A DNA stretch of 64,000 nt from positions 19,991 through 83,990 of the forward strand of contig JAJPJJ010000086.1 of assembly GCA_021324295.1 (NCBI GenBank), in the 5' to 3' direction. Under the pieces are notes generated by a model. It was not told the DNA's origin. It ran no database searches and was given only the letters and a program-made list of their open reading frames with translations. Below, in pieces: positions 4,679-44,355 of this stretch (the first letter of the stretch is position 1; each line of letters opens with the position of its first letter). Source of the DNA: Bacillota bacterium. GTDB taxonomy: Bacteria > Sysuimicrobiota > Sysuimicrobiia > Sysuimicrobiales > Segetimicrobiaceae. The translations under genes were made by a program, and so were the position numbers.

Positions 4679-5527
4679 CTAGGCGAGCGCCGCCTTCCCG
4701 AGGTACGCCTCGATCACCCGCGGGTCGCGCCGGATCTCGTCGGGGCTACCCTCGGCGATCTTCTCGCCGTGGTCCAGCACGGTCACCCGATCGGCCACGC
4801 CCATCACGACGCGCATCTGGTGCTCGATCAGCAGCACGGTCAATCGCAGGTCGCGCCGGAGGCGGCGGATGAACTCCATCAGGCGGCGGGCCTCTTCAGG
4901 GTTCATCCCGGCGGCCGGCTCGTCCAGGAGCAGCAAGCGTGGGCGCAGCGCGAGGGCGCGGGCGATCTCGAGCCGCCGTTGATCGCCGTAGGCGAGGTTC
5001 TTGGCCATCTCGTCCTCGCGGCCCCGCAGCCCCACGAACGCCAGAAGCTCGCGCGCATCCCGGTGCGCGGCGCTCTCCTCCGCGGTGACGGCGGGGGAGG
5101 CCAGGACGATCCGCAGGGGGTCCGCGCTCAGATGGGTGTGCATGCCGATGAGCACGTTCTCGAGCGCCGTCATGTTGGCGAAGACCCGGATGCTCTGGAA
5201 CGTGCGGGCGATGCCGAGCCTCGCGATCTCGTGCGCCCGGCGCCCGGTGATGTCCTGGCCGGCGAAGGCGACGGTGCCGGCATCGGGGCGGTAGAGGCCG
5301 GCGATGAGGTTGAAGAACGTGGTCTTGCCGGCCCCGTTGGGCCCGATCAGGCTGACGATCCTCTCCGCGGGGACCGTGAAGTCGACGCGGCTTACCGCGA
5401 CGAGCCCGCCGAACCGCTTCGTGATGCCCCGCGCCTCGAGCAGCGGCGCCCCCGCCGGCACGGAGGCGGCCGGCGGCCCTCCCGCGGGGGTGGGGCCCGT
5501 GCGTGGGTGGGAGGACATCTCCCTCAC
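4679..5527 (-). CDS. livG: Branched-chain amino acid ABC transporter ATP-binding protein (LivG-type)
   Basis: Walker A GPNGAGKTT, YGDQRRLEIARALA and LLLLDEPAAGMN. The start is either GTG 5527 (overlaps the livM stop) or ATG 5518. Confidence 0.92.
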   Translation of the reverse strand: MREMSSHPRTGPTPAGGPPAASVPAGAPLLEARGITKRFGGLVAVSRVDFTVPAERIVSLIGPNGAGKTTFFNLIAGLYRPDAGTVAFAGQDITGRRAHEIARLGIARTFQSIRVFANMTALENVLIGMHTHLSADPLRIVLASPAVTAEESAAHRDARELLAFVGLRGREDEMAKNLAYGDQRRLEIARALALRPRLLLLDEPAAGMNPEEARRLMEFIRRLRRDLRLTVLLIEHQMRVVMGVADRVTVLDHGEKIAEGSPDEIRRDPRVIEAYLGKAALA

Positions 5528-6717
5528 TCCTCCCTCGCGTACTCGCGGGGCGGGGTCCCCTCAGCCGCCGGCGCGCTCCCCGCGACCCCGGCCACCTCGG
5601 TGACGTCGCCCGGCGGGATCTCCTCCGACACCCGCTCCGTGATGATCGCCTTGATCCGCCGCTCGGGGAACAACCCCTCCGGCCGCAGCAGCATGAGGGC
5701 GATGAGGCCGAGGCCGTACAGCAGAAACTTGAGGTTCACGAAGTTGAGCCGGGTGAGGAGCGGGAGATGCAGCGCCGCCCCGAGGCTGTGAGACCACTGG
5801 GTCAGGTCCGTGAGGAACAGCGTCTGGAACTCGTACAGGATCCCGGCGCCGGCGATCACGCCGAAGACGCTCCCCATGCCACCGAGGACGACCATCGCGA
5901 GGATCGTGAACGAGACCGTGAAGTTGAACTGGTCGGGGCTGACGATGCCGAGCTTCGCCACGTAGAGCGCGCCGGCGAACCCGGAGAAGAACGCGCCGAA
6001 CGAGAACGCCAGCAGCTTCGTGGTGGTTAGGTTGATCCCCATCGAGGCGGCCGCGATCTCGTCCTCGCGCACGGCGAGCCACGCCCGGCCGAGCCGGGAG
6101 TCGCGCAGGCGCAGGACCGCCACCACCGAGAGCATGATGATCCCCAGGAGGGTGTAGTAGTACGGCACCGGGTTGAACCCGAAGTGGTACCCGAAGAGCA
6201 CGGGCTGATCGATCCCCACGATCCCGTTCGTCCCGCCGGTGTACTTCTGGAGGTTCAGGAACACCGTCGGCACGATCTCGCCGAACCCCAGCGTGACGAT
6301 CGCCAGGTAGTCGCCTCGGAGGCGCAGCGTCGGCGCGCCCAAAAGCGCCCCGAAGACCCCCGCGATGATCGCGGCGACGAGCAGCATCGGCCAGAACGGC
6401 AGGTGGAGCCCGTAGAACGGCGATGCCGCGAACGCGTAGGTATACGAGCCGATCGCGAAGAACGCCGCGTACCCGAGGTCGAGCAGCCCCGCGAACCCGA
6501 CGACGATGTTCAGCCCGAGGGCGAGCAGCACGTAGACCGCCGCGTCCGCCGCGGCGTTGACGTGCCCGGCGTTGTGATCGACCAGCGGGTAGAGCAGAAA
6601 CAGGAGGAGGACGAGGAGCGGGGACCGGTACGGTGCGATGCGCTGGACGACCCGCCCCCCCAGGCGCGCCCGCGACGGGGCCCCGGCGATGCTCCGCAGG
6701 GCGCGCCAGGCCGCCAT
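5524..6717 (-). CDS. livM: Branched-chain amino acid ABC transporter permease (LivM-type)
   Basis: Polytopic membrane protein with the typical LivM segments GLLDLGYAAFFAIGSY and RLRGDYLAIVTLGFGEI. Confidence 0.92.
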   Translation of the reverse strand: MAAWRALRSIAGAPSRARLGGRVVQRIAPYRSPLLVLLLFLLYPLVDHNAGHVNAAADAAVYVLLALGLNIVVGFAGLLDLGYAAFFAIGSYTYAFAASPFYGLHLPFWPMLLVAAIIAGVFGALLGAPTLRLRGDYLAIVTLGFGEIVPTVFLNLQKYTGGTNGIVGIDQPVLFGYHFGFNPVPYYYTLLGIIMLSVVAVLRLRDSRLGRAWLAVREDEIAAASMGINLTTTKLLAFSFGAFFSGFAGALYVAKLGIVSPDQFNFTVSFTILAMVVLGGMGSVFGVIAGAGILYEFQTLFLTDLTQWSHSLGAALHLPLLTRLNFVNLKFLLYGLGLIALMLLRPEGLFPERRIKAIITERVSEEIPPGDVTEVAGVAGSAPAAEGTPPREYAREE

Positions 6718-9900: not shown

Positions 9901-10033
9901 GGCGTCCCCGAGGCGCTCCCCGGCGACGAACCGCCGGGCGGCGCGCCGCAGGAGCGGCGCGCCGCCCGCGGCCCGGCGGAGGCGCGACGAGCGTGAGAGC
10001 GCGAGGAAGACCGCCCTCAGCAGCGGGCGTGCC

Positions 10034-11311
10034 TTACGGGTAGATCCCGCGGGTCATCAGCGCGTCGGCGACCCGCCCCACCGCGCGGACGAGCGCGCCC
10101 GTGCGCATGTCCACCTTCTTCTCCTGCGATGCGGCGAGCACGTCGCGGAAGCTACGCACCATGATGCGCTCCAACCGTTCGTTGATCTCTTCTTCGCTCC
10201 AGAAGAACGACTGCAGGTCCTGCACCCACTCGAAGTACGAGACGATCACGCCGCCCGCGTTGGCGAGGATATCCGGCACGATGAACACCTTGCGCTCGCG
10301 GAGAATCTCGTCGGCCTCCGGGGTCACCGGGCCGTTGGCGCCCTCGACGATCATGCGCGCCTGGATCCGCGACGCGTTGTCCTTGGTGATCTGGCCTTCG
10401 AGCGCGCTCGGCACGAGGATCTCACACGGCAGCTCGAGCAGGTCGTCGTTGGTGACGGCGTCGCTCCCGCGGTACCCGACGACGCTGCCGGTCTGCTCCT
10501 TGTGCCGCAGCAGGTCCCGCGGGTCGATGCCCTTCTCGGCGTACACGCCCCCGCTGCTGTCGCTCACCCCGACGATCCGGCACCCCTGCTCGTGCAGGAG
10601 CTGCGCGGCGATGCTCCCGACGTTCCCGAACCCCTGCACCACGACCCGGGCGCCGGCGAGCGACATGCCCAGGTGCCGGGCCGCCTCCCGCGCGACAATC
10701 GTGACGCCCCGCCCGGTCGCCTCGATCCGGCCGGCCGAGCCGCCGATCGCGATCGGCTTGCCGGTCACGACCGCGGGCACCGAGTATCCGTGGTGCATGC
10801 TGTAGGTATCCATGATCCACGCCATGACCTGGGGGGTCGTGCCGACGTCCGGCGCCGGGATGTCGCTCTCCGGGCCGATCAGGATCCCGATCTCGGTCGC
10901 GTACCGCCGGGTCAAGCGCTCCAGCTCCTCGTGCGACAGCTCCTTGGGATTGCACACGACGCCGCCCTTGGCACCGCCGTACGGCAGCCCGACCACCGCG
11001 CACTTCCAGGTCATCAGCATCGCGAGCGCCCGGACCTCGTTCAGCGAGACGTCCGGGTGGTAGCGGATGCCCCCCTTCGTGGGACCGAGCACCGTGCTGT
11101 GATGGATACGATAGCCCGTGAACACCCGCACGGACCCGTCCTCCATCTTCACCGGGAAGTTCACCGTAAGCTCCCGCTTGGGTTGCATGAGGAACTCCCG
11201 CACGCCCCGCTTGAGCGCGAGCAGGTCGGCTGCCACCGAGAACTGCTCGAGGGCGACCTTCCAGGGATCTTCCCGCGGTGCCGTCAAGACCGCCTTGGCT
11301 GCCATCCGCAT
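10034..11311 (-). CDS. gdh: Glutamate dehydrogenase (Glu/Leu/Phe/Val dehydrogenase family)
   Basis: Motifs [20 protein letters not shown] and the Rossmann motif [12 protein letters not shown] 11311 or 11305 follows GGAGGAGG. Confidence 0.93.
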
Positions 11312-19681: not shown

Positions 19682-21094
19682 CTACGGCTTGATGTTTTGG
19701 TTCAGCCGGAAGAAGTTGGTCGGATCGTACCGCCTCTTGAGCGCGACGAGGCGCTGGTACTTCGCCGCCCCATAGGCGGCCCGCACCCGGTCCTCGCCCT
19801 CGGCCCCCAGGAAGTTCACGTACACCCCGCCGGTCGCAAATGGGCGCATCGCCTCCCAGAACCCCCGCGCCCACGCCACCTGTGCCTCGTCCTCCGCCGG
19901 GTCCGACCAGACCGCGTTGATGTTGAGCGCGTACGGCGCCTCCCGGCCGCTGAACGCGGCGTCGTCCTCTCCGGTGCGTCTCACGGCGCCGCCGAGCTGG
20001 AAGATGATCGTGTACGACTTCCGGGACGGCATATCCCAGGCGCGGGCGACGAGCTGCTCGATCGCCGCGTCGCTGAACCCCGCGAGGTAGTCGGACTTCC
20101 AGTAGTACCGCAGCCCGTGCGGGACCGCGGCATCGAACGTGCCCTGGTGCGCGGTGTAGGCGATGGGGCGGACGAGGTCTGCGAGCGGCGTGCCGAGCCT
20201 GCGCAGCGGCGCGACGGCCCGTTCCCCCTCTTCGACCGGCCCCGCGTAGCAGGCAAAGATCGCGATCACCGGCTGGCCGTGCACGTGCTCGGGCAGGACC
20301 GGGAGCGGCGGGGCGTACCGGAGGAAGAGGATCGTGGTCAGCTCCTCGGGCGCCAGCTCGGCGTACTCGCGGTACCGGCGCAACACCTGCGCCGCCTCCG
20401 CGGCCGGGTAGAGCACGCCGCCCGCCAGCACGGTCGGGCCCACCGGGTGGAGCGCGAACTCGAACGACGTGACGATCCCAAAGTTCCCGCCCCCGCCGCG
20501 CACGCCCCAGAACAGCTCGGGATGCTCGGCCGCGCTCGCGCGGACGAACTGCCCGTCCGCGGTCACGATGTCCACGGAGCGGAGGTTGTCGCAGGTGAGC
20601 CCGTGCTTGCGCATGAGCCAGCCGATCCCGCCGCCGAGCGTGAGGCCGGCGACACCGGTGTGGGTCACGATGCCGCCAGGGGCCGCCAGCCCGAACGCCT
20701 GCGTCTCGCGGTCGAACTCGCCCCACAGGAGCCCGGGCTGCGCATGCGCCCGGCGCCCGGCCGGATCCACACGCATCCCCTTCATCGGCGACAGGTCGAT
20801 CACGAGCCCGGCGTCGCACACCGCGGTGCCGGCGACGTTGTGGCCGCCGCCGCGCACGGCGACGGGGAGCTCGCGCTCGCGGGCGAACCGGACGGCGGCC
20901 AGCACGTCCGCGACGCCCGTGCAGCGGGCGATCAGCGCCGGGCGCCTGTCGATGGCGCCGTTCCAGATCCGCCGCGCGGCCTCGTAGCCCGCCTCCCCGG
21001 GCCAGAGCAGCTCACCGCGGAACGCCGGTCGGAGGCCGGCCGCAAGCTCGCCCGGCGCGATCTCGATGTGCGTCCTCCGAGACATCTCCCTCAC
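19682..21094 (-). CDS. FAD-binding (PCMH-type) oxidoreductase with BBE-like C-terminus
   Basis: VAVRGGGHNVAGTAVCDAGLVIDLS, GVAGLTLGGGIGWL and the C-terminal YVNFL...YGAAKYQRLVALKRRYDPTNFFRLNQNI. GTG 21094 is preceded by AGGAGGGAG. Confidence 0.9.
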   Translation of the reverse strand: MREMSRRTHIEIAPGELAAGLRPAFRGELLWPGEAGYEAARRIWNGAIDRRPALIARCTGVADVLAAVRFARERELPVAVRGGGHNVAGTAVCDAGLVIDLSPMKGMRVDPAGRRAHAQPGLLWGEFDRETQAFGLAAPGGIVTHTGVAGLTLGGGIGWLMRKHGLTCDNLRSVDIVTADGQFVRASAAEHPELFWGVRGGGGNFGIVTSFEFALHPVGPTVLAGGVLYPAAEAAQVLRRYREYAELAPEELTTILFLRYAPPLPVLPEHVHGQPVIAIFACYAGPVEEGERAVAPLRRLGTPLADLVRPIAYTAHQGTFDAAVPHGLRYYWKSDYLAGFSDAAIEQLVARAWDMPSRKSYTIIFQLGGAVRRTGEDDAAFSGREAPYALNINAVWSDPAEDEAQVAWARGFWEAMRPFATGGVYVNFLGAEGEDRVRAAYGAAKYQRLVALKRRYDPTNFFRLNQNIKP

Positions 21095-37606: not shown

Positions 37607-37682
37607 TGGTGGCCCCAGGGGAATTCGAATCCCCGTTTCGGCCTTGAGAGGGCCGCGTCCTAGGCCTCTAGACGATGGGGCC
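37607..37682 (-). tRNA. tRNA-Glu (anticodon CUC), CCA encoded
   Basis: Hand-folded cloverleaf of 76 nt. Acceptor GGCCCCA/TGGGGCC, anticodon stem CGGCC/GGCCG with loop CTCTCAA, T-arm GGGGA-TTCGAAT-TCCCC, discriminator A plus CCA. Confidence 0.9.
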
Positions 37683-39372: not shown

Positions 39373-39810
39373 ATGCGCACGCGCGTGCTCCTCATCGATG
39401 CACAGACCTTGCTGCGGGAAGGCATCAAAGAGGTCTTCCGGACGGACCGGAGCATCGCGATCGTCGGCGAGGCCGGCGACGGGTACGATGGCGTCGCCCA
39501 GACCTCCACCCTGGCGCCAGACGTCGTGGTGATGGACGTGGCCCTGCCCGGAGGAGACGGGATCGCGACGATCAGGGCGATCAGGGCGCGGTGCCCGAGC
39601 ACACAAGTGGTCGTGCTCACCGACGTCGATGACGGCGGGGTGTACTGTAACGCGATCGCCGCCGGCGCAGCGGCCTATGTGCTGAAGACCCTTTCGCCCG
39701 CGGAGCTGGCGAGCACGATCCACACGGTCGCGGGTCGCGGGTGTGCCCCTCTACTTCCCGGCGTCGGGGCACACGTCACGCCCCACGCCTGGCCGCGGTC
39801 CAGCAGCTAG
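39373..39810 (+). CDS. Stand-alone NarL/LuxR-type receiver domain (no output domain; possibly truncated)
   Basis: MRTRVLLIDAQTLLREGI...DVVVMDVALPGGDGIATIRAIRARCPSTQVVVLTDVDD...AGAAAYVLKTLSPAEL. The ORF ends about 25 aa after the receiver with no LuxR HTH. Its last 60 nt overlap the convergent 39751..40620 ORF. Confidence 0.75.
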   Translation: MRTRVLLIDAQTLLREGIKEVFRTDRSIAIVGEAGDGYDGVAQTSTLAPDVVVMDVALPGGDGIATIRAIRARCPSTQVVVLTDVDDGGVYCNAIAAGAAAYVLKTLSPAELASTIHTVAGRGCAPLLPGVGAHVTPHAWPRSSS

Positions 39811-40620
39811 TGCAGCATCTGCGTCCGCGCCGCGCCCGCGGCGCGTGTACGCGAGGATCCTGGCCAGGAACTCCCGGCCGGCACGCGGGCCGCGGAAGCG
39901 GAGCTGTGCCCGGGGAGCCGGCCCGCTGATGACGCCCCCCGTGATCCCCCAGCATCGGCGCGCCATCGCGTTGATGCCGGCCAGGACGGCGGGCGTCCCG
40001 TGGAGCGTCAGCCTACCGCCGGCCGCGGCGCGACCAGCGGGCCAGTCCCCATCGGCATACCCGCGCAGGAACGGGGCCGCGAACCGCTCCGGTAGATCGT
40101 CCAGCAACCCCGGATCGCCTCCGTGTAGATCCGACGGAATGCCCCACGGGATGAGCGCCCGGCAGAGCGCCTGATCCCTGATATACAGCTGCCACCCCAG
40201 CAGGCTGCTGCGGCAGAATTCGTATCGCACGTGCGGCCCCGCGAGGTCGGCCATGAGCCTCTCCACGTAGGCCTGGGACTTCTCGCCGAGCGTGACGACA
40301 AGCGTGGCCGAGGCTCCCTGGCCCCATATGCATCCGGCGGCCGTGAGGAACCCCATCCAGTACACCTGCACGTCGGGGTCGGGCAGGCCCGGCGCGCCTG
40401 CCCGCGCCGCCAGCAGATCGGCAGGGTCGGCGAGACGGGGATCGCGCGCGGCGGCCAGCGTCCGCTCGACGACCTTCGCGGGCAGCTGGTACCGCTCCGC
40501 GATGTCGGCCGTGGTGCTGCCCCGGCGCGCGGCCGACCGGATCTGCAGCGTACGCCGGCGCTGTTCGAGATCCGCGGCGGTCGGGGTGCGGCGAGAGGTG
40601 CTCCTCCCCAGTGCGCCCAT
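39751..40620 (-). CDS. HTH + double LAGLIDADG-like (homing-endonuclease-derived) protein
   Basis: ATG 40620 lies 5 nt after the stop of the upstream small ORF. HTH-like STTADIAERYQLPAKVVERTL. Motif 1 is YWMGFLTAAGCIW (about aa 87-99) and motif 2 is APFLRGYADGDW (about aa 182-193), roughly 95 aa apart as in single-chain LAGLIDADG enzymes. Confidence 0.6.
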   Translation of the reverse strand: MGALGRSTSRRTPTAADLEQRRRTLQIRSAARRGSTTADIAERYQLPAKVVERTLAAARDPRLADPADLLAARAGAPGLPDPDVQVYWMGFLTAAGCIWGQGASATLVVTLGEKSQAYVERLMADLAGPHVRYEFCRSSLLGWQLYIRDQALCRALIPWGIPSDLHGGDPGLLDDLPERFAAPFLRGYADGDWPAGRAAAGGRLTLHGTPAVLAGINAMARRCWGITGGVISGPAPRAQLRFRGPRAGREFLARILAYTRRGRGADADAALAAGPRPGVGRDVCPDAGK

Positions 40621-40625
40621 CGCGA

Positions 40626-40856
40626 CTACAGTCCCGGCCGGGCCGGACAGTCGCGGCCCCGGTCCGTGATGACCGTCGCTCCGGACCCGCTCCCGCGGGG
40701 CCGGGCAACGAGCCCGTAACCGGCGCAGCGCAGGAGGCGGCGTTCCGCCGCGTCGCGCGGCAGACCGGGCGCGGCGGCGAGATCCTGGCTCTCTGCTCCG
40801 ACCGGCCACTCCGGCAGTGCGGCGAGCATGCGATTCCGGTCCTGGTCGAGCGCCAT
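40626..40856 (-). CDS. Small winged-helix-like DNA-binding protein (hypothetical)
   Basis: 76 aa: MALDQDRNRMLAALPEWPVGAESQDLAAAPGLPRDAAERRLLRCAGYGLVARPRGSGSGATVITDRGRD. GGAG lies 8 nt upstream of ATG 40856. Its stop lies 5 nt before the next ORF. Confidence 0.5.
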   Translation of the reverse strand: MALDQDRNRMLAALPEWPVGAESQDLAAAPGLPRDAAERRLLRCAGYGLVARPRGSGSGATVITDRGRDCPARPGL

Positions 40857-41027
40857 CGGTTACGCTCCGGGTGCGACGTGAGGTGCGGCGCCGGGGGCTC
40901 ACCGGAGGGGAGCGGGACGGGCAGGGACGCCGGGGGATCTCTCCGGCGGCGCGATCGCGGCGCCAGCCCGTCTGCCGGGAGGCTGCGTGTAGTGTAGCAT
41001 GGTTTTGCGGCGGCGTCGATGCGCAGC

Positions 41028-41045
41028 GTAACGGCCGTAACGGCC
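41028..41045. repeat. Perfect tandem 9-nt direct repeat GTAACGGCC x2
   Basis: Read directly at 41028-41036 and 41037-41045. It lies about 30 nt upstream of a TGcTACACT extended -10-like element (minus strand, 40999-40991), in the gap upstream of the 40856 ORF. Confidence 0.6.
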
Positions 41046-41140
41046 ACGCGGGCAAAGCCGGACAGGAGCGGCGATTCGGCGGGCGTCGTTCGAGCCGCGT
41101 GGCGCCGCCGGTCAGCTGGCCGACCCCGAGTCGGCAGCCC

Positions 41141-42466
41141 TCATGGGGTGGCGCCCCTGCCGCGTGCGGGAGCGCCGGCCGCCTCCTCCGGGCCCGCGCC
41201 GGCTGCGGATGGGACCACGCCCGGCCGCAGGACCTGGTAGAGGAAGATGGCGCCGAGCGCCCCGAGCCCGAGGTTGTTGATCTCGAAGGCCCCCGCCTTG
41301 ATGTCCGCGCCGCTCGCGGCCAGGATCAGCGGGATCGCCGCCGTCGCCAGGTTGGTGCGGTTCGAGAAGTCCACGCCCGCGTCGACCCAGATCTTGCCCC
41401 CGATCGCCGCGATGAGACCGAACAGGTACAGCTCGATGCCGCCGAGGACGCTCGTCGGCACGCTGTTCACCAGCGCGCCGAACTTTGGGATGAACCCGAG
41501 CAGAATCGCCACGACCGCCGCGAGCACATACACCGGGATCGAGAACACCCTCGTGATGCCCATGACGCCGATGTTCTCGGCGTACGTGGTCTCGCCGGTC
41601 CCGCCGAAGAGGCCGCTGAGCATCGTGCCGATCCCGTCACCCATGAACGCGCGGCCCAGGAAGCCCGTCAGGTCCCGCTTCATCAGGCCGCTGATCGCAT
41701 AGATGTGGCCGGTGTTCTCCGCGATGAGGACGATGGGGATGAACCAGAACAGGCTCACCGCCCGCAGGCTGAACTGCGGGGTGCTGAACTGAGGGTGGCC
41801 GATCCACGGCGCGGCGGCGACCGGGGCCAGGTTGACGTGGCACCCGGCCGCGGCGGCCGCGCAGTGGGGGGTGACGAGCGCCACCAGGTACCCGACGATC
41901 ACGCCGATCAGGACCGGCAGCAGGCGGGCGAACCCGCGCAGGTACACGCTGGCCAGGGCGGCCGCGAGCGTCGTCACGGTCGCGGTGAAGAGGTCCTTGG
42001 CGTAGCTGCCCCACGCCGCATTCGCGAGCGCGAGGCCGATGACGGCCACGACGGTCCCGGTGACGATCGGCGGCATGAAGAAGCGGATCACGCGGGCGCC
42101 GAGCGCGTGCACCGCGACGCCGGCGAGGAAGTACAGCGCCCCGGCGATCACGATGCCCGCGTAGGCCAGCGGCTGGTTGTGCCCCGCGCCTCCCTGGATC
42201 GCCAGCACCGAGCCGATGAACGAGAAGGACGATCCGAGGTAGCTGGGGATCTTGCCGCCCGTCACGCCGATGAAGACGAGCGTCGCGACCCCGCTGAAGA
42301 AGAGGACGGTGTTGACGTTGAAGCCGAGGATCAGGGGCACGAGGACGGTGGCCCCGAACATCGCCATGACGTGCTGGATGCCGAGCAGGACGGTCTGGAC
42401 CCAGGGCAGGCGGTCTTCGGGATAGTACACGACATCGCGTTCGGCCGCAACGCCGATCGTCGCCAT
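41141..42466 (-). CDS. NCS2-family nucleobase permease (uracil/xanthine permease type)
   Basis: LLGIQHVMAMFGATVLVPLILG, GGKIPSYLGSSFSFI, ENTGHIYAISGL and GETTYAENIGVMGITRV are typical NCS2 motifs. Confidence 0.9.
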   Translation of the reverse strand: MATIGVAAERDVVYYPEDRLPWVQTVLLGIQHVMAMFGATVLVPLILGFNVNTVLFFSGVATLVFIGVTGGKIPSYLGSSFSFIGSVLAIQGGAGHNQPLAYAGIVIAGALYFLAGVAVHALGARVIRFFMPPIVTGTVVAVIGLALANAAWGSYAKDLFTATVTTLAAALASVYLRGFARLLPVLIGVIVGYLVALVTPHCAAAAAGCHVNLAPVAAAPWIGHPQFSTPQFSLRAVSLFWFIPIVLIAENTGHIYAISGLMKRDLTGFLGRAFMGDGIGTMLSGLFGGTGETTYAENIGVMGITRVFSIPVYVLAAVVAILLGFIPKFGALVNSVPTSVLGGIELYLFGLIAAIGGKIWVDAGVDFSNRTNLATAAIPLILAASGADIKAGAFEINNLGLGALGAIFLYQVLRPGVVPSAAGAGPEEAAGAPARGRGATP

Positions 42467-44281: not shown

Positions 44282-44355
44282 TGGCTGGGGGAGGAGGATT
44301 CGAACCCCCGCTAACGGGTCCAGAGCCCGTCGTCCTACCGCTAGACGATCCCCCA
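44282..44355 (-). tRNA. tRNA-Gln (anticodon CUG), CCA encoded
   Basis: Hand-folded cloverleaf of 74 nt. Acceptor TGGGGGA/TCCCCCA, anticodon stem ACGGG/CCCGT with loop CTCTGGA, T-arm GGGGG-TTCGAAT-CCTCC, discriminator G plus CCA. Confidence 0.88.

Follow-up and report, generated by a model that had tools for sequence, protein, structure and literature searches.

The question raised by the locus described here is whether a chromosomal gene for a helix-turn-helix (HTH) protein with two LAGLIDADG-like motifs encodes an active homing endonuclease, the decaying remnant of one, or a protein that has taken on a new role. The gene, hereafter open reading frame (ORF) A, lies in a 64,000-nucleotide (nt) stretch of contig JAJPJJ010000086.1 (GenBank assembly GCA_021324295.1, Bacillota bacterium; positions 19,991 to 83,990 of the forward strand), which we refer to as the window and number from its first letter. 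An initial annotation, made from the sequence of the window alone, had described ORF A and a small winged-helix ORF just upstream of it (ORF B) as a two-gene cassette, and had proposed either an independent domestication as a regulator or a decaying free-standing homing endonuclease. We found that ORF A is a chromosomal, conserved descendant of phage-type homing endonucleases that combine an HTH with a monomeric double-LAGLIDADG core. The reading that we prefer, with a probability of roughly 0.6, is that this descendant is a non-cleaving, sequence-specific nucleic-acid-binding protein with a regulatory or architectural role and an ancestral tie to a module made up of a cold-shock gene (csp) and a gene for a small basic protein.

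39751-40620, minus strand: ORF A, 289 amino acids (aa), ATG at 40620; N-terminal HTH followed by a degenerate double-LAGLIDADG core

Evidence of coding was needed, because the G+C content of the window (about 72-75%) gives long ORFs in every frame. In its own frame ORF A shows the pattern of a coding sequence, with a G+C fraction of 0.84-0.87 at third codon positions (GC3) and of 0.51-0.64 at second positions (GC2); this signal is below that of the neighbouring genes (GC3 of at least 0.95), and the extension of the frame upstream of the ATG at 40620, as far as a TTG at 41055, has a non-coding appearance. The ORFs and protein strings reported initially were all recovered at their places: the translation holds STTADIAERYQLPAKVVERTL, YWMGFLTAAGCIW (residues 87-99) and FLRGYADGDW (residues 184-193), the starts of the two motifs are 97 residues apart (about 95 had been claimed for the helices), and the gap between the ORF B stop and the ORF A ATG is 5 nt. 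The window sequence was found again, identical and with the same gene order, on several metagenome contigs.

A word-indexed search with ORF A retrieved 60 other proteins with 45-64% identity, all of them named "hypothetical" and most of them 255-280 aa long. Both LAGLIDADG motifs are present in 61 homologues, and the family alignment contains 35 invariant and 34 near-invariant columns; motif 1 contributes Y87, W88 and G90 to the invariant ones, and motif 2 contributes G187 and G191. According to a scan of the genomes, the relatives reside in metagenome-assembled genomes (MAGs) labelled "Bacillati bacterium ANGP1", "Bacillota bacterium Centralia_MAG" and "uncultured Firmicutes", and in soil MAGs; the name ANGP1 denotes a candidate phylum, still tentative, that comes from grassland soil (PMC7305173). 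No curated family covers ORF A directly, scans of ORF A and ORF B against Pfam, NCBIfam and PADLOC having returned no match, and only the PHROG family phrog_4645 ("endonuclease") matches its core (residues 86-192, E=6.4e-8). The same PHROG profile is matched by 27 of 30 members of the family. Literature searches found nothing on the ORF A family.

The ancestry of the family became visible in an exhaustive profile search, which returned 867 clusters as a halo around a tight core of eight clusters at E of 1e-30 or lower (loci of relatives are denoted below by L numbers, and members of this search by P numbers). The halo members P0082, P0083, P0090, P0101 and P0120 are about 270 aa long, co-linear with ORF A from the HTH onward, and carry intact motifs (YWLGFIAADG and FLRGYVDGDGGF); these proteins reach or come near the Pfam thresholds for LAGLIDADG_3 and LAGLIDADG_1. 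An hhalign comparison of the ORF A family profile with P0120 gave a probability of 97.7% (E=1.8e-12, residues 31-249), and P0120 in turn matches genes annotated as "intron-encoded endonuclease" or "mobile intron protein" in Staphylococcus, crAss-like, Lactococcus, Bacillus and other phages, the match to the Staphylococcus phage genes extending over 97% of its length. An intermediate group (P0065, P0070-72) also lacks the acids, with motifs of the form YWLGYIAA[ST]G and F[VL]RGY[LM]EG[SG]. Homology to recognised LAGLIDADG families is thus given by phrog_4645, the reach of the profile search and hhalign, with no direct match to Pfam, and a tblastn search of ORF A against 50,697 phage records yielded no match. 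Since the HTH is co-linear in phage-type endonucleases with intact motifs, it was inherited and is not a new fusion; the initial view that the HTH fusion was special to ORF A has to be given up, as the arrangement is common to phage intron-encoded and free-standing LAGLIDADG endonucleases.

With the phage HTH-LAGLIDADG endonucleases of phrog_4645, such as the Staphylococcus Twort-like phage "intron-encoded endonuclease" and A0A1W6JN87 of Lactococcus phage LW81, ORF A shares its size (about 265-290 aa), the co-linear HTH and two LAGLIDADG domains, and helices of the form YW.GF...G and F.RGY.DG. Unlike these enzymes, it has lost the catalytic acids or leaves them unconstrained, has Trp for the Gly that closes the motif, and carries a variable loop in place of the first hairpin of domain 2; its gene also lies on the chromosomes of uncultured soil bacteria, where it is syntenic and evolves under purifying selection, outside any phage, intron or intein context. 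As a separate observation, the representative library contains giant distant relatives (P0099, 931 aa; P0118, 769 aa; P0100; P0146) with arrays of repeated HTH modules, which in P0099 stand on either side of two complete HTH-LAGLIDADG endonuclease units whose motifs are intact, and P0118 appears, from inspection of its sequence by eye, to be fused C-terminally to a methyltransferase-like region.

An AlphaFold (AF2) model of ORF A, built from the alignment of homologues, reached a predicted local distance difference test score (pLDDT) of 82.7 and a predicted template modelling score (pTM) of 0.83. Its layout is an HTH, then a domain with αββαββα topology, then a second, partial repeat (H, helix; E, strand):

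40456-40578, minus strand: N-terminal three-helix HTH of the AF2 model, residues 15-55 (helices 15-32, 37-43 and 48-55)
40144-40377, minus strand: LAGLIDADG domain 1 of the AF2 model (H82-95, E96-99, E106-112, H116-126, E132-138, E142-148, H150-159)
39850-40089, minus strand: LAGLIDADG domain 2 of the AF2 model, residues 178-257 (H178-191, E205-208, H210-224, E229-232, E238-242, H245-257)

The HTH is also seen as sub-threshold matches to HTH_23, Sigma70_r4 and HTH_28 in several members of the family. Domain 2 is incomplete, with a variable, low-confidence loop at residues 192-204 in place of the first beta-hairpin (pLDDT about 60 over residues 191-200). When the model was compared with the PDB by Foldseek, 50 of the 50 best matches were LAGLIDADG proteins, including I-Tsp061I, I-DmoI, I-SceI, intein endonucleases, the bI3 maturase and WhiA, and the best matches among the predicted viral structures of BFVD were phage LAGLIDADG endonucleases, 265-320 aa in length, whose alignments span 258-286 columns and take in the HTH. 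The claim of a LAGLIDADG fold with an N-terminal HTH is therefore borne out by the model and both structure searches, and the double-LAGLIDADG fold is recognisable in spite of the domain 2 hairpin that is not confidently predicted. Among characterised enzymes, I-Tsp061I is the best match to the core (E=3e-5), and I-DmoI superimposes with a target-normalised template modelling score of 0.60-0.68 and a root-mean-square deviation of about 4 Å over roughly 192 columns; unlike ORF A, from which they differ with an identity of only 10-16%, these two enzymes and I-SceI lack an N-terminal HTH, have D or E at both motif ends and are intron-encoded. Sequence searches of the PDB with phmmer and profiles brought up nothing beyond a designed HTH repeat in the case of ORF A and spurious Fab matches in that of ORF B. 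The outcomes that the initial annotation had named as speaking against it (no similarity to the fold, unconserved motifs, or an ORF with neither homologues nor coding codon statistics) were not encountered.

The catalytic residues of LAGLIDADG enzymes include D20 in I-CreI (LAGFVDGDG) and D21 and E117 in I-DmoI (PMC3384342). Mapping the ORF A motifs onto LAGLIDADG from established knowledge placed the catalytic-equivalent positions at A95 and D192:

40333-40362, minus strand: motif 1, YWMGFLTAAG, residues 87-96; catalytic-equivalent residue Ala95
40042-40071, minus strand: motif 2, FLRGYADGDW, residues 184-193; catalytic-equivalent residue Asp192, followed by Trp instead of the usual Gly

An acid at the C-terminal end of each LAGLIDADG helix is not found in ORF A; in the window copy motif 2 has its Asp and motif 1 has no acid. 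In the family alignment, position 95 is Ala in 59 of 60 proteins, Thr in one and acidic in none, and position 192 is occupied by N (33), D (14), E (4), G (3), S (2) and by Q, T and V (one each), so that 18 of 59 residues are acidic; the residue that follows is usually Trp, not Gly, and Phe and Arg also occur. The description of the protein as half-degenerate is thus correct for motif 1, which has lost its acid, and does not extend to the family for motif 2, which had been taken as retained. As position 192 is freely variable, it does not behave as a catalytic residue. In WhiA the loss of the catalytic acids goes together with a complete lack of DNA cleavage (PMC3384342). We strongly infer from these residues that ORF A is catalytically inactive, and it is almost certainly non-nucleolytic.

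These positions also bear on the idea that ORF A remains active as a homing endonuclease or a site-specific nickase; it would then work through the one motif-2 acid that is left (Asp192 in the window) or through substitute residues, and its place beside csp would mark the homing site. The relatives of ORF A are bona fide phage endonucleases, and D is kept at the motif-2 position in the window, L013, L014, L022 and L024, but the family has no acidic residue at the motif-1 position, carries N, S, G, Q, T or V at the motif-2 position in 41 of 59 proteins, has replaced the closing Gly of motif 2 by Trp, Phe or Arg, and has turned half of the domain 2 sheet into a variable loop. We consider such an activity improbable.

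Selection on ORF A was estimated from the ratio of nonsynonymous to synonymous substitution rates (dN/dS, Nei-Gojobori method), which ranges from 0.06 to 0.26 in the close pairs L017/L019, L009/L016, L018/L020, L013/L014, L014/L024 and L023a/L029; pairs of greater divergence are saturated. The window copy was also set against the family in a leave-one-out test: of the 64 positions with a conservation of 90% or more it departs at one, which equals the median of the other members. Gene order is retained across deep divergence: L011 and L025, with 63% identity and a synonymous divergence (dS) above 1, have Maf, Ion_trans_2 and MFS genes in common on the upstream side, and csp on the downstream side. 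In the L017-L020 clade, each of the four loci carries a tRNA-Arg(ACG) gene 1.5-3.7 kb upstream of ORF A:

L017, 1308-1383: tRNA-Arg(ACG)
L018, 3443-3518: tRNA-Arg(ACG)
L019, 2230-2305: tRNA-Arg(ACG)
L020, 2048-2123: tRNA-Arg(ACG)

This marker differs from the tRNA genes near the window copy, tRNA-Glu (37607-37682, 2.1 kb away) and tRNA-Gln (44282-44355, 3.4 kb away). The initial annotation had placed ORF A in a tRNA-flanked, decayed-looking region. The tRNA flanks are not a trait of the family, whose other members do not stand beside the same tRNA genes, and the region consists of ordinary housekeeping genes without an integrase. A genomic island bounded by the tRNA genes was rejected on the same two grounds. 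Nor was a mobile context of another kind found: there is no intron or intein at the locus, a repeat search gave GC-rich chance matches only and no terminal repeats, and an Rfam scan of 13 loci detected neither introns nor structured RNA adjoining ORF A, only tRNAs and one c-di-AMP riboswitch. Synteny over saturated dS, too, stands against an active nuclease, as it speaks of residence, not mobility.

Low dN/dS, synteny across deep divergence and the family-wide loss of catalytic residues show that ORF A is maintained and is not a decaying selfish gene; it is kept by purifying selection and vertically inherited. Of the two options of the initial annotation, domestication is hence favoured over decay. 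A functionless remnant of a free-standing homing endonuclease gene, sitting with ORF B as junk in a rearranged region, would account for the lost catalytic residues and for a GC3 below that of the neighbouring genes, but it is at odds with the dN/dS values, with some 60 full-length homologues that share so many invariant and near-invariant columns, with a window copy that is typical of its family, and with a confident fold prediction. We regard this explanation as very improbable, even with the traits of ORF B and of the ORF A C-terminus, described below, that would suit it.

What the protein may do instead is suggested by the distribution of its conservation. The most conserved part of ORF A is LAGLIDADG domain 1, with values of 0.87 in LAGLIDADG helix 1 and of 0.83, 0.76 and 0.89 in strands b2, b3 and b4, and conservation is lower in domain 2, falling to 0.38 in the 192-204 loop and to 0.19 in the C-terminal tail. 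In LAGLIDADG enzymes DNA recognition is carried by the beta-sheets. The sheets are likewise treated as the DNA-recognition part of these enzymes in PMC3384342. By analogy, the conserved domain 1 sheet suggests a conserved nucleic-acid half-site, since it is through such sheets that LAGLIDADG enzymes recognise DNA. We infer that ORF A binds DNA without cleaving it and has a regulatory role; binding would take place through the N-terminal HTH and the strongly conserved domain 1 sheet, and domain 2 would serve mainly as a packing partner.

An unlikely, though less improbable, alternative is that ORF A has been kept for a role other than DNA binding by its LAGLIDADG core, such as maturase-like RNA binding, perhaps in connection with csp or the small basic RNA-binding neighbours, or service as a protein-protein scaffold with the HTH alone on DNA, a role that has been proposed for WhiA. 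Both routes are exemplified by LAGLIDADG maturases and WhiA (PMC3384342), and the usual neighbours of ORF A, csp and the small basic protein, are nucleic-acid chaperone-like, but no group I introns were found by Rfam in the loci scanned, and the most conserved segments are the domain 1 strands, which contact DNA in the endonucleases.

The closest parallel to regulation by such a scaffold is WhiA. WhiA is a tamed homing endonuclease and, among the examples reviewed in PMC3384342, the bacterial case of a LAGLIDADG homing endonuclease turned gene regulator; the evolutionary logic proposed for ORF A is the same. Like WhiA (DUF199), ORF A has a monomeric double-LAGLIDADG scaffold without catalytic acids that is joined to an HTH, and the WhiA structures 3hyj, 3hyi and 8dy9 match its model at E-values of about 8e-4 to 3e-3 in Foldseek. 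In contrast to WhiA, the HTH is N-terminal and not C-terminal, the sequence relatives are phage endonucleases, and the family occupies a narrow set of soil lineages; the Pfam models WhiA_N, LAGLIDADG_WhiA and HTH_WhiA, as well as NCBIfam, gave no match in ORF A or in 30 of its homologues. The usual whiA operon contains rapZ and yvcK. Unlike this operon, the surroundings of ORF A consist of csp, the small-basic-protein gene, ORF B or unrelated genes. ORF A is not a member of the WhiA family, in agreement with the independence from WhiA claimed initially, and it plausibly works like WhiA. On the reading that we prefer, the loss of the metal-binding acids in the ORF A lineage and its maintenance by purifying selection parallel the domestication of WhiA and are independent of it.

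A possible partner of ORF A is indicated by its neighbours. ORF A is followed on the same strand, after 100-170 nt, by a 68-aa cold-shock gene (csp) in nine distinct loci, with farther flanks that differ. As the csp-linked loci are scattered over the neighbour-joining tree and include the three nearest relatives of the window copy (L025, L001 and L011), the linkage is probably ancestral and was lost in the window; csp directly downstream is thus probably the ancestral neighbour of ORF A. The DNA between ORF A and csp consists of a csp promoter (TTTGC and CATACT with 17 nt between them) and a near-invariant leader of about 32 nt, GCATCAGCAGGCTGCAAAGTCGGTTGGTAGCA, ahead of the ribosome-binding site (RBS):

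L001, 6820-6956: csp promoter and leader
L011, 5802-5906: csp promoter and leader
L025, 5832-5989: csp promoter and leader
L036, about 2440-2602: csp promoter and leader

The csp gene of L036 does not adjoin ORF A, and the leader is accordingly a property of csp and no proof of an ORF A operator. In the window a search for it was negative. Rfam at its gathering threshold made no call on the leader in the csp-linked loci scanned, L036 having been left out; the leader may be a cold-shock element. An operator search by shared k-mers in the flanks of ORF A recovered only the -10 box, the RBS and start of the small-basic-protein gene, and the csp promoter with its leader. That no operator emerged would fit a role other than DNA binding by the core. 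Free-standing homing endonuclease genes typically stand beside highly conserved target genes, and csp with its 32-nt leader would suit this pattern if ORF A were still an active nuclease, as would the two ORF A copies in some genomes. As to these copies, several genomes contain two ORF A paralogues, typically one linked to csp and one not (the pairs include L018 and L021, from the same MAG SMAG_U12316, and L010 and L034, from GCA_035307765.1), and in L023 two copies (5001-5705 and 9936-10700) lie 4.2 kb apart with csp between them.

The second recurrent neighbour is a small basic protein of 60-69 aa, encoded directly upstream of ORF A or divergently from it in 12 loci, among them:

L009, 4337-4534, minus strand: small basic protein
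L012, 4802-5011, plus strand: small basic protein
L014, 4665-4868, minus strand: small basic protein
L021, 4780-4980, plus strand: small basic protein
L022, 739-921, plus strand: small basic protein
L029, 4798-5004, plus strand: small basic protein

Its N-terminus, MARPNY(N/S)xxKRA(R/K)ELKxKAKRxAKLARK, precedes a tail that is acidic and rich in Pro. The protein gave no match in Pfam and does not occur in the window. In 13 other loci the ORF A unit is preceded by an extended -10 box, TGCTAYACT, and the window holds a corresponding element:

40991-41019, minus strand: promoter-like element recognised from sequence; -35 TCGACG at 41019-41014, 17-nt spacer, extended -10 TGcTACACT at 40999-40991

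The -35/-10 layout agrees with that of L011, L014 and L024; a generic sigma-70 scan did not call the window element. A Shine-Dalgarno sequence, GGAG (40868-40865), lies 8 nt before the ATG of ORF B, and its surroundings (GGAGCGTAA, 40861-40870) resemble the GGGAGCGTGA box that precedes the small-basic-protein gene in L012, L018, L020, L021, L023 and L029. To judge by this resemblance, ORF B may occupy the promoter and RBS slot that is held elsewhere by the small-basic-protein gene. The ancestral ORF A would have stood just upstream of csp; the usual place of the gene is behind the small-basic-protein gene and the conserved extended -10 promoter.

A more specific version of the regulator reading, which we offer tentatively and hold to be possible at best, is that ORF A represents a second, independent domestication of a LAGLIDADG protein into a bacterial transcription factor, this time from the phage HTH-LAGLIDADG lineage and not from that of WhiA, that it would still recognise a former homing site in or near the csp leader, and that it would control a cold-shock or small nucleic-acid-binding-protein module in an uncultured soil lineage of high G+C content (ANGP1 and "Bacillota" MAGs). 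Several points weigh against our preferred reading of ORF A as a non-cleaving regulator. Strong conservation of the DNA around the gene is confined to the csp promoter and leader, which are also found at an unlinked csp and are absent from the window; the csp linkage itself could be the fossil of an old homing insertion beside a conserved gene; the Asp192 kept in motif 2 of the window copy may confer residual nicking activity; and the host lineage is uncultured. In addition, the LAGLIDADG domain of WhiA may not bind DNA at all (PMC3384342), which makes the binding mode proposed for ORF A uncertain.

The evolutionary case is clean and testable, and the function is putative. If the preferred reading is true, ORF A constitutes a second tamed family with clear active relatives, a datable loss of acids and a conserved partner, csp, and offers a natural comparison for the taming of nucleases. 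Its members are predicted to be naturally inactive, long-site DNA-binding scaffolds. The analysis also provides a name and a testable hypothesis for about 60 or more "hypothetical proteins" without a Pfam or NCBIfam match, and likewise for more than 200 putative winged-helix proteins of 77 aa, the family of ORF B.

40626-40856, minus strand: ORF B, 76 aa, putative winged-helix protein (ArsR/MarR-like), apparently a degenerate copy, in another frame than ORF A

The coding signal of ORF B is ambiguous (G+C of 0.82, 0.67 and 0.79 at the first, second and third codon positions). A search with the single sequence recovered only itself, and a three-sequence profile found more than 211 family members, nearly all of 76-79 aa and some of them named ArsR-family by JGI. 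The AF2 model (helix-helix-helix-beta-beta, pLDDT 66) is matched in Foldseek by winged-helix proteins throughout (NsrR, MarR, ArsR-type, AspA), with weak E-values of 6e-3 to 3e-2, and a homologue gave sub-threshold Pfam matches to HTH_IclR, MarR_2, HTH_20 and HTH_5. The possible likeness to ArsR and MarR proteins lies in the predicted topology of three helices, strand, wing and strand and in these structural matches; in contrast to ArsR and MarR regulators, the family is short (about 77 aa), lacks dimerisation helices and an evident metal or ligand site, and stays below the Pfam thresholds.

ORF B of the window departs from its family at 10 of 32 conserved positions (median of the other members 1, maximum 3), and almost all changes are to Pro, Arg, Gly or Cys, as expected under relaxed selection in a GC-rich genome. 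It looks degenerate in sequence, as a decaying copy of a putative winged-helix regulator that drifts towards a pseudogene. Most members of its family are not beside ORF A (in L031 the gene follows rsfS, and in L036 it is near csp and rpoZ). An intact pair of ORF B and ORF A, with a gap of 8 nt, was found in one other genome only (L034/L035), which also has a csp-linked ORF A paralogue, and wrecks of ORF B lie directly upstream of ORF A in L001 (45 aa, internally deleted), L025 (frameshifted) and L011 (a C-terminal fragment). The two-gene cassette is therefore not what defines the family: the association is lineage-specific and eroding, and the usual neighbour of ORF A is csp. A degenerating ORF B with wrecked counterparts is one of the traits that would suit a functionless remnant.

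The other such trait is the aberrant C-terminus of ORF A, which overlaps a convergent gene.

39751-39832, minus strand: C-terminal tail of ORF A without homology, from about residue 263 on; pLDDT below 50, unaligned
39373-39810, plus strand: receiver-only response regulator, 145 aa, convergent with ORF A; Pfam Response_reg, E=6.6e-21

Beyond about residue 263 (near 39832) ORF A is no longer homologous to its family. The homologues terminate 5-15 residues farther on, 10-20 residues short of the window protein, which continues for 26; the last 20 codons of the latter (60 nt) are antisense to the 3' end of the response regulator gene. An overlap with the end of a receiver gene devoid of an output domain had been described before, and was confirmed. 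The regulator is best matched by NarL-type proteins, and NCBIfam models for NarL, MctR and similar proteins cover only profile positions 7-124 of about 216. About 25 residues after the receiver domain the protein stops, where GerE would begin in the NarL type, so that the receiver is present and a C-terminal LuxR/GerE HTH output domain is not; no histidine kinase gene is adjacent. A test for an insertion into a NarL-type gene was negative, none of the plus-strand frames of 39650-41250 holding a remnant of GerE. A truncation of the regulator is therefore suggested only by profile coverage and junction geometry.

From the sequence at this boundary, a rearrangement junction at about 39810-39832 is probable; the event would have cost the regulator its output domain, and ORF A its natural stop and its csp neighbour. 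In the scenario that we propose, the locus in the window was rearranged such that csp disappeared and the 3' end of ORF A was replaced by the antisense of a probably truncated NarL-type receiver gene, and the upstream expression slot would have been taken by ORF B, itself drifting towards a pseudogene and translationally juxtaposed to ORF A by the 5-nt gap. A search of metagenome contigs for a sister or empty site with the neighbouring S2P/CBS protease returned best matches of 62% identity or less, none with the response regulator, ORF A, ORF B or csp.

Two further features were observed in the loci of the relatives. The c-di-AMP riboswitch found by Rfam (RF00379, 75 bits; L018, 1-115, plus strand) lies at the edge of its locus, some 4.9 kb upstream of the ORF A homologue, and is probably unrelated to it. 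In three loci that differ in other respects, an unannotated protein of 70 aa (MWLKVKGEGHLVNLDHVMEIKATLGHGK...) is encoded at a distance of up to about 1 kb from the ORF A homologue; the copies of L001 and L034 share 77% identity:

L001, 5388-5600, plus strand: 70-aa protein
L034, 5728-5940, plus strand: 70-aa protein
L022, 2094-2291, plus strand: 70-aa protein

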